Origin: Escherichia phage vB_EcoM-RPN187
Sequence record: OL770074.2
Direction: 5' to 3' (one strand)
DNA: 64,000 nt
Shown: positions 9,070 to 17,039 of the stretch, piece after piece
Layout: each line of letters begins with the position of its first letter
How positions within the stretch are numbered: position 1 is the stretch's first letter
The notes under the pieces: model-generated
Told to the model about the DNA's origin: nothing
Seen by the model: the letters and a program-made list of their open reading frames with translations, nothing else
Databases searched by the model: none
Made by a program: the position numbers and the translations under genes

Positions 9070-10383
9070 TCAAATAAAATGGACGTCAAACCGGCCACGA
9101 GTTGTGCCGACATACAATAACTGTTTAGCTAATTCTGAATCGGCATAATGGATACACGGTGTATAAACAAAGGCCGTGTCAACAGACATACCCTGGGCCT
9201 TATGGAAGGTTGATACTGGTAGTGCCTTCACCTTAGTGAACATACGTTTAGCATCCCAGAATTCGCTCCATGGAGCTTTACCACCTTTATTCCAAAATTT
9301 GTATGTTTCTGCGGCCTTAGCCAAAAACAAATTGAATTTATAAAGCTCTTCTTCAGAAGAAATAACCTTTATATCTTCGCGGATGTATTCTTCATCATCC
9401 CCATATGTTTCTACTGTAAGATTCCAGTATCGTATCATATATTCGCCTGAAACACCACGTGCTTTAACGAATGTAGACGTTTCTACAGCATCTCGAATAC
9501 GAACGAATTGGCCGTTATTGAAAAGCATTTCGGTCATATTTTTACCATCTAGCTTATATGTCTTAGTAAATGGCTCTTGTAGAACAATGACTTCGTCTTT
9601 AATAAATGGTTTTTCTGTTTCAAGAAGTTTTCGGCGAATAATTGAATTTAACTTGTCCACCGACTTATTTGTGAATGCCATCATTCGATTTTCGAAAAGG
9701 TCTTCAGGAGTTTTAACGACGTTAAAATAGTTCATCATATACGATTTAAGGTCTGTATATCCGTGAACACCATGTCCATCAACTACTTTATCGTAAATCC
9801 ATTTGCCATTACGAATATCAGTCGCAACATCAATAATTGGTGCATTGCTACGTTTAACTTCTGTAAGGTTGCATTGCACGAAGTCTTTGTGAGTGAAGAA
9901 AGGACTTAGATACGCAGTTGATTCGCCTGGGTCTACCGGACGAATCTGGCATCGGTCGCCGATTCCAATTACTGTACACCATTTAGGGATACTAGCTAAC
10001 ATTATTTTAAACAGAGAACGGTCGCACATTGACGCTTCATCAAATAACAGTACACGGCACAAGGCTAAGTCTGGAACCTTTTTCTGTTCAAACAATACGT
10101 TTTCTTCGTATGTAGTTGGGTTGATTTTAAGAATGCTATGAATAGTCGATGCTTCTTGACCCGCAAGTTTGCTTAGAACCTTTTTAGCAGCATGTGTAGG
10201 GGCTGCTAAAATAATACCTGATTCTCCAGAAGAAATAAGGGCTTCAACGATGAATCTAGTAAGGGTTGTTTTACCTGTACCAGCAGGCCCATTAATAGTT
10301 ACGTGATGTTTCTTTTCTTTAATAGCGTTCATAACAACGTTGAAGGCGTTTTTCTGGCCTTCAGTCAAATCATCAAATGTCAT
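9070..10383 (-). CDS. dda: Dda DNA helicase (SF1)
   Basis: 437 aa; Walker A GPAGTGKTT; T4 Dda size and position. Confidence 0.9.
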   Translation of the reverse strand: MTFDDLTEGQKNAFNVVMNAIKEKKHHVTINGPAGTGKTTLTRFIVEALISSGESGIILAAPTHAAKKVLSKLAGQEASTIHSILKINPTTYEENVLFEQKKVPDLALCRVLLFDEASMCDRSLFKIMLASIPKWCTVIGIGDRCQIRPVDPGESTAYLSPFFTHKDFVQCNLTEVKRSNAPIIDVATDIRNGKWIYDKVVDGHGVHGYTDLKSYMMNYFNVVKTPEDLFENRMMAFTNKSVDKLNSIIRRKLLETEKPFIKDEVIVLQEPFTKTYKLDGKNMTEMLFNNGQFVRIRDAVETSTFVKARGVSGEYMIRYWNLTVETYGDDEEYIREDIKVISSEEELYKFNLFLAKAAETYKFWNKGGKAPWSEFWDAKRMFTKVKALPVSTFHKAQGMSVDTAFVYTPCIHYADSELAKQLLYVGTTRGRFDVHFI

Positions 10384-14420: not shown

Positions 14421-14657
14421 TTAACCACCTACTGCTGTAGGCGTAAACATTGCAGCATTCTTAGTTTTCCAATCAGATGCATCAGAAACTACAGTAGAAT
14501 ATGCTGCCTTTTCTGATGGAAAGATTTGGTAATGAGAATCTGCAATCCGATGTTCGTTTGAATAAATCTCAAACGGTACAGAAACTTCCATACCTTTAAC
14601 TTCTTTGCCTTCACCAGCAGGATGCGTAAAGGTTTTGATGTTTACATAACCACCCAT
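14421..14657 (-). CDS. soc: small outer capsid protein Soc
   Basis: 78 aa; GYVNIKTF...HYQ.FPSEKAAYSTV matches recalled T4 Soc. Confidence 0.85.
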   Translation of the reverse strand: MGGYVNIKTFTHPAGEGKEVKGMEVSVPFEIYSNEHRIADSHYQIFPSEKAAYSTVVSDASDWKTKNAAMFTPTAVGG

Positions 14658-14703
14658 AATTAACTCCTTTGTTGTTTAATTACAGGTGTATTTATATCAG
14701 TAA

Positions 14704-15225
14704 TCAGTAACCATTATCTTGGCGTTCAAAGTTGTGTTGGTTTTTCAAGTAGTAAAGTTTAAAGATTTCTTCAGCCGTAAGACCCAGACCTTGGAACATA
14801 TTCAGAACAAAGTGCAGAATATCAATCATCTCGAATTTAATTTCAAGCTGGTCTTCAGGAGACAGTTCATCGATACGACGATTTCGATATTCAACATGTT
14901 GAGCTTTCCACGGCTTCCATACAGAGCTAGCGGCTTTTTCACCATTGCTCATACCACCAAGTGAAGTCAGCAGTTCACGGAATTCATCATCAATATAATC
15001 TTTCTGATTACGCAGCCAATCAACAACATCACCAGCAGTGGCCAATTCATCAGGATGTTTGTTATGTTCAGGCTTGTCATTTGCCAGACGAACCTGTAAA
15101 GATTTCTGCATATCAAGCATTACCTGCAGAGGGTCTTTATCTTCGTGAATCAGAGCATTAAAATAAGCTTCTTCTGCTTTATCAACACCAGAAATAAGTT
15201 GTGAACATTCGTTAAAGTGTGCCAT
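14704..15225 (-). CDS. 56: dCTP pyrophosphatase gp56 (MazG-like)
   Basis: 173 aa from ATG (MAHFNE) with SD AAAGGAAAA; T4 gp56 171 aa; ORF-track start is TTG. Confidence 0.8.
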   Translation of the reverse strand: MAHFNECSQLISGVDKAEEAYFNALIHEDKDPLQVMLDMQKSLQVRLANDKPEHNKHPDELATAGDVVDWLRNQKDYIDDEFRELLTSLGGMSNGEKAASSVWKPWKAQHVEYRNRRIDELSPEDQLEIKFEMIDILHFVLNMFQGLGLTAEEIFKLYYLKNQHNFERQDNGY

Positions 15226-15315
15226 TATTTTTCCTTTCAATTCAGTATAAGAGAAGTTAATTCTAACATTAATTTTATAAAGCGTAATAAATAATAAGGT
15301 AACTAAGGAGATATT

Positions 15316-15513
15316 ATGTTTAAACTTCCATCGTTAATCAACGCTATTAAAGGCAATAAAAAGAAAACTGCTATCGCTGCAATAGTTGTAGGTGGCATTA
15401 TTTCATGGAACTTCGGGATTGCACCATTGTTAGTTGCCCATGGTGTTATGGTTCCTTCTGTTCCATTGGATACTGTAGTTGATTTAGCCTTTGCTATTAT
15501 AGGGCTTGTCTAA
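15316..15513 (+). CDS. hypothetical small hydrophobic/membrane protein, plus strand
   Basis: 65 aa, strong SD AAGGAG 6 nt before ATG; convergent with gp61, stop codons overlap. Confidence 0.55.
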   Translation: MFKLPSLINAIKGNKKKTAIAAIVVGGIISWNFGIAPLLVAHGVMVPSVPLDTVVDLAFAIIGLV

Positions 15514-16532
15514 ATCTTAGAATAATGAGATAATCTCATTTTAGCATGCAACCCACTTGAAATATTCTGTTTCATATATTCTAAAATTTCTTGTGGTGTT
15601 GCATTTTCTTTCATTACCATATCATTCACATCCTTTGATCTCCATGGAGCTCGGTCCCAGAACATGACACGTTCGCCTGCATCAACTAATCGCTTCATGC
15701 GAGCTATAGTATCCGGATGCCTAGGTTCATTATCCATTACCCATACCCGACGTTCTTTAAATGGTACCACATCTAAATCTATTGAGCCGCCTGTAATAGC
15801 GATTGCGTTGGGTATGAATAAACTATCAATAGGGCCTTCCATTACCCAGACGTCTCCTTCCTTAACACGTTCAGCACCATAAATTTTTGTTGCAGACTCA
15901 AACGCTTTAATAGTGATATATTTCTGAGGAGCATCTTTACGAAGTGCACGTCCTTGGAATGACTCAGCCTTCCCATCTTTATTAAAAATAGGAATCACTA
16001 AACGTGGTTCGGGAATCTCTTTCTTATACGTACCAGGTTGAATCTTGTTGACCAATTTGGGCCATTCTAATGTGAACCATAATCTGTTCCATGATTCTTT
16101 AGGAATGCATCGAGACTTAACATATTTCACAATAGGATGCTCTTCAGGCAGCTTGTCCAGACGAGAACAAGACGGCAAAGAATTTATAGTCTTTTTCTCT
16201 GGTTCTGGTTTATGTTCAGGAACCTTTTCAATCTTTGGTTCCATTCTAGCTTTTTCTTTACGAACTTCCATTAGATATTCGCGATAAAGCTCTTCATCAT
16301 ACTCTTTTAAGTATCCGGAAATTGTATTGTGGTATTGGCAGTTATAGCAATGTACATTACCAGGAGTACCACCATAATACCATCCGCGAGCTTTCATTGC
16401 ATCTGTCTGGGAGTCGCCACAAACTGGACACCGAAACGTTAATTTAAATGTGCTTGAATTATTGATTTGTCTAAAACGAGGGAGGTGAGAAAACGCACGA
16501 TAAGCAAATTCATTATCTATCCATTCAGCCAT
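15510..16532 (-). CDS. 61: DNA primase gp61
   Basis: 340 aa; zinc-ribbon CPVCGD...CYNC; T4 gp61 342 aa; SD GGAG. Confidence 0.9.
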   Translation of the reverse strand: MAEWIDNEFAYRAFSHLPRFRQINNSSTFKLTFRCPVCGDSQTDAMKARGWYYGGTPGNVHCYNCQYHNTISGYLKEYDEELYREYLMEVRKEKARMEPKIEKVPEHKPEPEKKTINSLPSCSRLDKLPEEHPIVKYVKSRCIPKESWNRLWFTLEWPKLVNKIQPGTYKKEIPEPRLVIPIFNKDGKAESFQGRALRKDAPQKYITIKAFESATKIYGAERVKEGDVWVMEGPIDSLFIPNAIAITGGSIDLDVVPFKERRVWVMDNEPRHPDTIARMKRLVDAGERVMFWDRAPWRSKDVNDMVMKENATPQEILEYMKQNISSGLHAKMRLSHYSKI

Positions 16533-16571
16533 AGTATTCTCCAGAGGCCTTAAATTAATAAGGCCATCATA

Positions 16572-17039
16572 TCACAACTTATTAATATTTACTTTAATTC
16601 GCTTTCTTTTCTTGGAAGGAATTTGTTCTGGACCTTTATTTACGACTGCACCTGTAGTTGTTCCTGATGCAATAGCTTGAGGACTACCGCCTGAATCACC
16701 AGCAACCATATCCTCAAATAAAGGGAGTTCTTTAAATATTTCTTTCTGTTGTTCTTCCGTAATGTTATAGCGTGAAGCTACAGCACTCCAGGCAGACATC
16801 ATTGAGGCCATTCCATTAAGACCTGGAACAGTGCTCATCATTCGCTTCATTGAACGAACTGAAGCATGAAAAGGTGTATAAGCCGCTTTCTCTTCGGGAG
16901 TAGAAGGACGTTTAAGAACACTTCCACGTTCATCGATGATTTTGGCTTCGTATGCTTTCCATTCGGTAAAAGGTTTTTGCATTAGTCGAATAAACTTATA
17001 TGCATAAACAGAATCTATTGCAGTGTTAATAATACCCAT
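16572..17039 (-). CDS. hypothetical protein (61.1 region)
   Basis: ORF-track start TTG; ATG (MGIINT) with strong SD AGGAGGT. Confidence 0.5.
   Translation of the reverse strand: MGIINTAIDSVYAYKFIRLMQKPFTEWKAYEAKIIDERGSVLKRPSTPEEKAAYTPFHASVRSMKRMMSTVPGLNGMASMMSAWSAVASRYNITEEQQKEIFKELPLFEDMVAGDSGGSPQAIASGTTTGAVVNKGPEQIPSKKRKRIKVNINKL

Follow-up and report, generated by a model that had tools for sequence, protein, structure and literature searches.

The window analysed, a 64-kb stretch of sequence record OL770074.2, derives from a Mosigvirus, a T4-type coliphage with ~98% identity to HX01 and TU01. The minus strand accounts for ~90% of its coding sequence; on the opposite strand lies a 65-codon ORF (15316..15513; ATG at 15316, TAA stop at 15511-15513) that belongs to PHROG 2024 and follows, with 5 nt between them, the Shine-Dalgarno (SD) sequence AAGGAG (15305..15310, plus strand). 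Upstream of the SD sequence is a late-promoter-like box, AATAAATA (15286..15293, plus strand), equivalent to TATAAATA with A at position -13. The ORF is convergent with the gene of the gp61 DNA primase (15510..16532, minus strand; phrog_47, E = 2e-100) and divergent from that of the gp56 dCTPase (14704..15225, minus strand; start taken as the ATG at 15225, MAHFNE...), the upstream region of which holds both the ORF and its promoter box. The gp61 stop codon TAG (cta at 15510-15512 on the plus strand) shares 2 nt with the stop codon of the ORF, and the two genes therefore overlap by 4 nt, a stop-on-stop geometry that is kept in Mosigvirus, Tequatrovirus, Moonvirus and Gelderlandvirus. Within the C-terminal codons of gp61 (M R L S H Y) lies the palindrome AATGAGAT-A-ATCTCATT (15524..15540).

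The sequence-only reading had described the ORF as hydrophobic, preceded by AAGGAG, overlapping the gp61 stop on the other strand, and, across the 64 kb, the one plus-strand gene that convinced. Its features and coordinates were verified, and a census of plus-strand ORFs of at least 40 aa within the gaps of the minus-strand coding tiling of the window supports its uniqueness: an SD sequence combined with an ATG was found in the 65-aa ORF alone, and none of the nine other plus-strand candidates has a PHROG match. The PHROG 2024 HMM aligns residues 1-65 of the predicted protein with profile positions 1-65 of 65 (E = 2.6e-27), and recognizes the T4 and Yersinia phage P8 orthologs with E = 5e-31 and 4e-26, respectively. 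Orthologs include RB69ORF029w, RB32ORF030w, gp16.1 of Salmonella phage S16, and an ORF of T4 (NC_000866, 17738-17938) that is present in the reference record without annotation. The protein finds matches in 692 phage records by tblastn, and the plus-strand position between 56 (dam in T4) and 61 is shared by at least six genera of Tevenvirinae (Mosigvirus, Tequatrovirus, Gaprivervirus, Moonvirus, Jiaodavirus and Gelderlandvirus) and an unclassified Yersinia phage. Between genera, amino acid identity falls as low as 28-31%, alignment gaps are whole codons, and residues W31, N32, P37, G43, P47 and G63 are invariant. The dN/dS of orthologous pairs ranges from 0.09 to 0.34 (T4 versus RB51, 0.09; T4 versus SG1, 0.12; the window versus L009, 0.20; Merlin versus S16, 0.23), and substitutions rank third > first > second by codon position, the second being least changed in every pair compared. 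The AGGAG of the SD sequence is invariant in an alignment of the upstream regions of nine lineages. Thus, 15316-15513 on the plus strand is a bona fide conserved gene of T-even phages.

The PHROG 2024 family is narrow, as judged from sequence searches. When the Mosigvirus alignment was run exhaustively with HMMER against 1.84 billion representatives, it recovered only two related 50%-identity clusters and one spurious repeat protein; word-indexed searches found nothing beyond close relatives, and PHROG 2024 is the sole family match of the 65-aa protein, Pfam, NCBIfam and PADLOC having none. Its members are annotated as hypothetical proteins of T-even phages, and RB69ORF029w, RB32ORF030w and S16 gp16.1 do not differ from the protein of the window in family, position, strand or predicted transmembrane (TM) segment. 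In the searchable literature we found no paper on RB69ORF029w or ORF030w, no T4 transcription start site or Ribo-seq evidence at this locus, and no transcript, ribosome or peptide evidence for the gene.

The orientation of the ORF bears on the timing of its expression. Early and middle transcripts of T4 are all of one polarity (PMC2988020), and both strands are used by late transcripts only (PMC2988020; PMC1524935). Lying on the clockwise strand, the ORF is compatible with late transcription only, and the gene is most likely late because early and middle transcription is all on the other strand. The candidate promoter is the AATAAATA box, 22 nt before the ATG, with a predicted transcript start near 15299. 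In every lineage the ATG is preceded, at a distance of 12-23 nt, by a NATAAATA box, in the form N-ATAAATA or, in Merlin and S16 (two genera), ATTAAATA, and it is kept although the flanking sequences do not align and the neighbouring gene varies (dam in T4, 56 elsewhere). The box differs from the late-promoter consensus at one position in the phage of the window and at two in Merlin and S16; A at -13 is the commonest variant, found in 9 of 50 late promoters of T4 (PMC2988020). The AATAAATA motif is depleted in the window (4 observed versus 10 expected); it occurs only twice on the plus strand of the 64 kb, the copy at 15286-15293 included, and exact TATAAATA has no plus-strand occurrence there. 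The same class of motif marks soc (14689-14696), and the RB69 late-promoter HMM (Nolan et al.) does not call the box. The gene is probably expressed late; the gp55-associated RNA polymerase would transcribe it from this box, with translation initiated from the strong SD sequence.

The AlphaFold2 model of the 65-aa protein (pLDDT 85) has helices at residues 3-11, 15-41 and 51-62, of which one alone has the length needed to cross a bilayer, and charge is distributed unevenly (+5 N-terminal, -2 C-terminal). Both the model and the charge distribution agree with the TM segment predicted at residues 21-41 of RB69ORF029w (PMC1524935 supplement). The protein would thus have a basic cytoplasmic N-terminus, a long TM helix (approximately residues 18-41) and, after a turn rich in Pro, a short acidic and hydrophobic C-terminal helix on the periplasmic side. 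It is probably a protein of the inner membrane that is made late and has a distant relationship to a family of holins.

The link to holins passes through a family of 96-aa proteins of enterobacterial prophages. Aligned with hhalign, the T-even profile matches this family with 97-98% probability (best 98.2%, E = 5e-14), and the 96-aa family matches PHROG 2024 with E = 1e-10 to 8e-13. Nine of 20 members of the 96-aa family in turn match GTA_holin_3TM (PF11351), the best with 24.8 bits, which is exactly the gathering cutoff of 24.8 bits; scored on their own, the shared C-terminal 50 aa give 18.1 bits (E = 0.004, model positions 68-117). No direct match to PF11351 with E ≤ 10 was obtained for the proteins of the window, T4, P8, P0007, Merlin, KPV15 or S16, and the holin link is therefore transitive, none of the seven orthologs reaching the model by itself. 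The region concerned is hydrophobic, and its composition can inflate scores. It comprises a TM-plus-tail module, W-N-F/Y-x3-P...G-x3-P-x2-P-L-D/E, which is putatively homologous, by way of the 96-aa family, to the C-terminal module of the GTA_holin_3TM lineage. PF11351 includes the holin of the Rhodobacter capsulatus gene transfer agent and TeaA of Vibrio phage ICP1, of which the latter has demonstrated holin activity (PMC7182436). With these proteins the 65-aa protein shares a phage-encoded origin, small size, a predicted membrane location, probable late expression, and, when aligned through the 96-aa family, a module consisting of aromatic-N-F/Y, P, G, P..P-L-D/E and a G near the end; it differs in being about half as long, in covering neither the N-terminal nor the central part of the model, and in having one TM helix plus a short 12-residue helix rather than three TM segments. 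Other approaches to holins are the ortholog of phage OE5505, which bears the label 'Holin' in UniProt/BFVD (a fold search of BFVD with the 65-aa model returned orthologs only, one so labelled), and a weak match of the 65-aa protein family to phrog_3427. The 'GTA-like holin' of Pan1 is itself under the Pfam threshold for PF11351.

The best explanation of the gene, in our judgement, is that, late in infection, its product would build up and self-associate in the inner membrane and serve there as an accessory factor, either of the membrane or of lysis timing. Holin T of T4 and its antiholins RI and RIII are likewise late-acting inner-membrane components, and T has an N-in topology with a single TM segment, as predicted for the 65-aa protein; however, T has 218 aa and carries a large domain in the periplasm, and no sequence similarity of the 65-aa protein to T, RI or RIII was detected. 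The phage already has a different, essential holin: lysis of T4 depends on T, hence an accessory role rather than that of the main holin, and t mutants of T4 do not lyse, so the 65-aa protein is not a sufficient holin. Taken as a whole, with the palindrome functionless (see below), this explanation is one to which we would give an even chance. Work on lysis, lysis inhibition and late transcription takes T4 as its reference, and if the link to the holin family is true, a second holin-like membrane protein would join a system whose parts were believed to be all listed (T, RI, RIII, E and the spanins).

A possible, though less probable, alternative is that the late membrane protein is real and has a job other than lysis, such as superinfection exclusion, defence or counter-defence, or membrane anchoring, in which case nothing more than a common module for membrane insertion would lie behind its likeness to holins. 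The context of the 96-aa relatives favours this alternative. They resemble the 65-aa protein in the motif MF.L..II.LIK at the N-terminus and in the last 45 residues, and differ by a hydrophilic insert of ~30 residues (…EQN.ITLEETRKG.TWR…); they reside in prophages and islands (P0048 and P0034, for example, each occur on some 900 contigs of E. coli/Klebsiella), whereas the 65-aa gene is in a lytic T-even genome. The 96-aa gene is the last in a cassette of four accessory genes (GIY-YIG-like, 189, 103 and 96 aa) at the ends of prophages, adjoining a KAP NTPase (PADLOC PDC-S20) and an EcoRII restriction-modification system, and occurs once outside any prophage. The prophages that carry it hold a separate DUF2730 holin-like gene and a lysozyme gene, an apparent lysis cassette, so the 96-aa proteins themselves may be something other than holins. 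In the T-even genomes, too, the gene is situated among genes of DNA metabolism (primase and dCTPase) with no endolysin adjoining, which does not resemble a lysis cassette, and T, RI, RIII and the spanins are already present in T4; we know of no genetic link between the ORF and lysis. Against this alternative, PADLOC finds no match for either the 65-aa or the 96-aa protein, and the only function-labelled families approached are those of holins (PF11351, phrog_3427 weakly, and the UniProt label).

Two further explanations invoke the transcript as well as, or in place of, the protein. A bolder version of the preferred explanation, that the gene is an overlooked late gene of T-even phages encoding a minimal holin-like protein of the TeaA/GTA type that works in lysis or lysis inhibition, for example by tuning the triggering of holin T or the membrane potential, while its unterminated late transcript silences gene 61 in antisense, we regard as unlikely. 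Slightly more doubtful still is that RNA is the main product and the ORF secondary, a late plus-strand transcript complementary to the 61-to-56 read-through mRNA helping to shut off early replication genes. The overlapping stop codons, with their geometry kept in four genera, are compatible with such a role, and no plus-strand terminator was detected for about 3 kb after the ORF, so that a late transcript of it would necessarily run antisense into gene 61. The strong purifying selection on amino acids and the invariant SD sequence and ATG, however, point to the protein, and in CJ20 and KPV15 the spacer at this junction contains strong, GC-rich terminator hairpins right after the ORF (in CJ20 a stem of ~19 bp followed by UUUUU, in KPV15 GGGGCC/GGCCCC), which would abolish an antisense effect while the gene is retained. 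These terminators of relatives also argue for real convergent transcription at the junction of the ORF and 61. In T4, a hairpin on the minus strand, GGGTTAAT…ATTAACCC, spans the convergent stops (z = -2.3); Mosigvirus has no equivalent of it.

The palindrome had attracted attention in the sequence-only reading as a possible bidirectional terminator or protein-binding site. It exists as a perfect 17-bp palindrome, at 15524-15540 and not, as had been read, at 15522-15538, and a function for it is very improbable. Bidirectional intrinsic terminators do occur between convergent genes of T4-type phages, for example downstream of uvsW.1 (PMC1524935), and the palindrome is like them in lying between convergent genes, 10 nt past the plus-strand stop, with a short U run (UUUUA on the plus strand) after it; it is perfect in this window, and its hairpin is present in both minimum free energy (MFE) folds. 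Unlike them, it is inside coding sequence, AU-rich, limited to 7 usable pairs, and not conserved. Its RNA would form a 7-bp hairpin with two G-C pairs of seven; the 56-nt fold (-6.2 kcal/mol) has a z-score of -0.33 versus shuffles, the z-scores of the two folds being -0.33 and +0.15. A scan of 14600-16700 found no terminator-like site, the stem failing because it is not GC-rich, in contrast to the long or GC-rich terminators of CJ20 and KPV15 at the equivalent site. Perfect palindromes with 8-bp arms and a 1-nt spacer are no more numerous in the window than expected by chance (2 versus 1.6 ± 1.4 in first-order Markov simulations). Conservation in relatives had been set beforehand as a check: the perfect form occurs in only seven phage records, versus 140 Mosigvirus records with AACGAGATAATCTCATT, which has a stem mismatch (the AACGAG form), and it is absent from the equivalent site in T4, Merlin and S16; in HX01 the hairpin is gone from the MFE fold. 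The C-terminal codons of gp61 (M-R-L-S-H/R/K-Y) fully account for the sequence: in AGA-TTA-TCT, AGA and TCT are reverse complements around TTA, and an Arg-to-His substitution in a small subclade would have completed the palindrome. It thus appears to be an incidental product of coding with no function of its own, and can be dropped, sparing follow-up effort. A candidate sigma-70 promoter over the palindrome (15506-15534, plus strand) was likewise rejected, 6 such sites being found in 14600-16700 versus 6.9 expected.

Least probable of all, to the point of being negligible, is that the 65-aa ORF is no gene but a spurious reading frame that happens to run antisense to the 61-56 intergenic transcript: it is short, hydrophobic, missing from the NC_000866 annotation and blank in Pfam and NCBIfam, but amino acid conservation across genera with whole-codon gaps, dN/dS well below 1, the conserved SD sequence, PHROG family membership and a confident structural model all oppose this. 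The reference record of T4 thus omits a selected, syntenic gene, and the ORF should join the T4 annotation. Phage a48 has a frameshifted copy of it, which suggests either that the gene is dispensable or that a homopolymer was misread in sequencing.

The region studied comprises the 290 bp separating the genes of gp61 primase (15510-16532, minus strand; phrog_47, E 2e-100) and gp56 dCTPase (14704-15225, minus strand), together with the first 30 bp within the 3' end of gene 61. The window is from a Mosigvirus, a coliphage of T4 type, and 1.9 kb of it (14700-16600) has 98-99% identity to phages TU01, AV112 and HX01. As a sequence-only reading had described, a 65-aa ORF lies on the plus strand at 15316-15513 (ATG at 15316, TAA at 15511-15513), with an AAGGAG Shine-Dalgarno sequence (15305-15310, plus strand) 5 nt ahead of the ATG, and its stop codon has two bases in common with the minus-strand TAG of gp61 (15510-15512). 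The same reading's description of it as the only convincing plus-strand gene is upheld within the limits of a census of plus-strand ORFs, 40 aa or longer, that fall clear of the minus-strand coding tiling (about 90% of the window): it is the sole ORF with a Shine-Dalgarno sequence, an ATG and a plausible protein, and nine other candidates have no PHROG match.

The ORF is almost certainly a real gene. It belongs to PHROG 2024, which it matches over its full length (E 2.6e-27), is contained in 692 phage records (tblastn), and occupies the same position and strand in Mosigvirus, Tequatrovirus, Gaprivervirus, a Yersinia phage, Moonvirus, Jiaodavirus and Gelderlandvirus. Its dN/dS is 0.09-0.34 (Nei-Gojobori, informative pairs), substitutions rank by codon position as 3 > 1 > 2 in all pairs, alignment gaps are whole codons, and W31, N32, P37, G43, P47 and G63 stay unchanged even between orthologs only 28% identical. 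The family has little breadth: HMMER, run exhaustively against 1.84 billion representatives, returned two related clusters only. Its members are annotated as hypothetical proteins in HX01 (D299_gp163), Merlin (gp33), KPV15 (gp050), S16 (gp16.1) and RB51 ("RB32ORF030w, similar to RB69ORF029w"). The T4 ortholog (66 aa, 55% identical; NC_000866 17738-17938, plus strand = L002 3239-3439), with GATAAATA and AAAGGAGG upstream, falls in a 309-bp dam-61 gap that carries no annotation in NC_000866; it is called in a recent T4 assembly annotated with Pyrodigal and PHROG (OZ209023). The gene is previously catalogued yet uncharacterised, and of an ordinary kind, probably encoding a small late phage membrane protein; its mild interest is that it is kept across the T-even subfamily, is left out of the annotation of the T4 reference, and has holins as its closest labelled relatives. 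In phage a48 (L007 1483-1608) the loss of one nucleotide from a run of A (aataaaaa-cgt) truncates the ortholog to an annotated 41-aa remnant; either the gene is dispensable or the deletion is a sequencing error in the homopolymer.

Upstream of the ORF, 22 nt ahead of the ATG, is a AATAAATA box (15286-15293, plus strand), the A(-13) form of the late-promoter consensus TATAAATA. A(-13) is the commonest variant, found in 9 of 50 T4 late promoters (PMC2988020), and across T4-like phages as a whole position -13 shows little conservation (PMC1524935). A box stands 12-23 nt upstream of the ATG in all lineages compared, as GATAAATA in T4, AATAAATA in RB51-type phages, CATAAATA in Gaprivervirus, the Yersinia phage and KPV15, and ATTAAATA in Merlin and S16; the sequence flanking it is unalignable between lineages, and the upstream neighbour varies (dam in T4, 56 elsewhere). 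Both forms are scarce in the window (TATAAATA, 4 observed versus 7.3 expected; AATAAATA, 4 versus 10), which fits selection against stray late promoters, and the plus strand has two AATAAATA and no TATAAATA. A perfect TATAAATA at 14689-14696 on the minus strand, 32 nt upstream of the soc ortholog (14421-14657, minus strand), is probably the soc late promoter. Nolan et al. (PMC1524935), using an HMM for RB69 late promoters, did not list the box. Late promoter function is a well-motivated prediction for the 15286-15293 box; since early and middle transcripts of T4 all have one polarity (PMC2988020), the plus-strand gene should be a late one, and its late expression is likely.

The two genes converge on a 4-nt stop-on-stop overlap that is kept in Mosigvirus, Tequatrovirus, Moonvirus and Gelderlandvirus. 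Relatives with a spacer at this junction have a strong terminator-like hairpin in it: GGGGCC-UUUG-GGCCCC in the 18-nt gap of KPV15 (L024 1366-1381), and in CJ20 (L006 ~1750-1795) some 19 bp of stem ahead of UUUUU, in a 118-nt gap that folds as a whole at -41.5 kcal/mol. These hairpins, absent where the stops overlap, look like bidirectional terminators, suggesting that both strands are truly transcribed into the junction, and they provide a model of how a terminator appears beside gene 61. No plus-strand terminator-like site was found for about 3 kb past the ORF in the window, so a late transcript would continue antisense into gene 61. In T4 (L002 3428-3480), the overlapping stops lie between the 8-bp arms of an inverted repeat, GGGTTAAT…ATTAACCC (minus-strand fold -11.8 kcal/mol, z = -2.3); the repeat is absent from the Mosigvirus window.

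The palindrome AATGAGAT-A-ATCTCATT, which the sequence-only reading had offered as a bidirectional terminator or protein-binding site, exists, two bases to the right of where it had been placed (15524-15540), and is a chance occurrence. The window has two perfect palindromes of this design (8-bp arms, 1-nt spacer) versus 1.6 +/- 1.4 in Markov simulations; the other is TTTTAACG-A-CGTTAAAA at 9711-9727. As RNA it is a 7-bp AU-rich hairpin, the surrounding 56 nt fold no better than shuffles (z = -0.33 on the plus strand, +0.15 on the minus), and a terminator scan of 14600-16700 found nothing. Read on the primase strand, ATG AGA TTA TCT CAT T encodes M-R-L-S-H-Y of the gp61 tail KMRLSHYSKI*, and the core GAGAT-A-ATCTC comes for free because AGA and TCT are reverse complements on either side of TTA. 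Conservation in relatives, whose absence the sequence-only reading had named as a refutation, is lacking: the CAT (His) of the window is CGT (Arg) in HX01 and most relatives, disrupting one stem pair; exact-word searches found the perfect palindrome in 7 phage records and the AACGAG form in 140; T4-type phages encode MRLSKY as ATGCGGCTATCTAAATAT, without the palindrome; and Merlin and S16 lack it. It was rejected as a feature on frequency, stability, codon origin and lack of conservation in relatives.

The protein is very likely located in the membrane. A transmembrane segment at 21-41 was predicted for RB69ORF029w by Nolan et al. (PMC1524935), and AlphaFold2, given an alignment of 24 sequences, models helices at 3-11, 15-41 and 51-62 separated by a Pro-rich turn (mean pLDDT 85). 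The net charge is +5 in the N-terminal 17 residues and -2 in the C-terminal 24; from this the positive-inside rule yields a predicted N-in/C-out topology, with a single pass through the inner membrane and a short helix that is periplasmic or interfacial.

Homology to the GTA_holin_3TM lineage (PF11351) is rather probable. A 92-aa Yersinia protein from an IMG/VR search (contig L018) matches both PHROG 2024 (E 8e-13) and PF11351 (24.8 bits, exactly the gathering score; E 3e-5), and belongs to a family of about 96 aa that is common in enterobacterial prophages, two of its variants each occurring on about 900 contigs. In profile-profile comparison with this family, the T-even alignment gave 97.4% probability with 8 sequences, and 98.2% (E 5e-14, residues 20-65) once Merlin, KPV15 and S16 were added. 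PF11351 was matched by 9 of 20 family members (E <= 0.01), and by the T-even-homologous C-terminal 50 residues alone at 18.1 bits (E 0.004, model positions 68-117). The T-even protein, which retains an N-terminal amphipathic helix and the TM-plus-tail module without the central hydrophilic segment, looks by these links like a minimal derivative of this lineage. PF11351 includes the RcGTA holin and ICP1 TeaA; DNP triggers TeaA, which makes the PMF collapse (PMC7182436). A Tequatrovirus ortholog already carries a "Holin" label in UniProt/BFVD.

A lysis-related role is nevertheless doubtful, and a serious rival is a membrane role that is accessory or related to exclusion or defence. The PF11351 link is transitive and in a hydrophobic region, no T-even ortholog searched matching PF11351 directly; the protein has one TM helix whereas GTA_holin_3TM has three; and its gene lies outside any lysis cassette. 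T4 lysis requires holin T, so the protein cannot be a sufficient holin. Prophages with the 96-aa gene have a separate DUF2730 holin-like gene and lysozyme, which appear to be their true lysis cassette, and the 96-aa gene is itself the last of a four-gene cassette (GIY-YIG/SegE-like, ~149 aa; 189, 103 and 96 aa; L019 4670-6291, L018 18-1614, also L020-L022). This cassette stands at the end of enterobacterial prophages, past the tail-tip J gene, adjoining a KAP NTPase (PADLOC PDC-S20), and in L022 lies outside a prophage, where its neighbour is an R-M system of EcoRII type. PADLOC does not match the cassette itself, which could be an accessory or defence module of an uncharacterised sort.

Three more tiny plus-strand ORFs, 25-37 aa long, that the HX01 RefSeq record has close to soc and 56 (L001 675-872, 2017-2094) look like over-calls, without counterpart in the other annotations examined. 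The interval between 56 and 61 is a hot spot for insertions: in Yersinia phage P8 a homing endonuclease separates the small ORF from gene 61 (L005 1786-2553), in T4 dam stands between the small ORF and 56 (L002 2347-3126), with segF beyond 56, and SG1 and L011 have yet another gene upstream of the small ORF.
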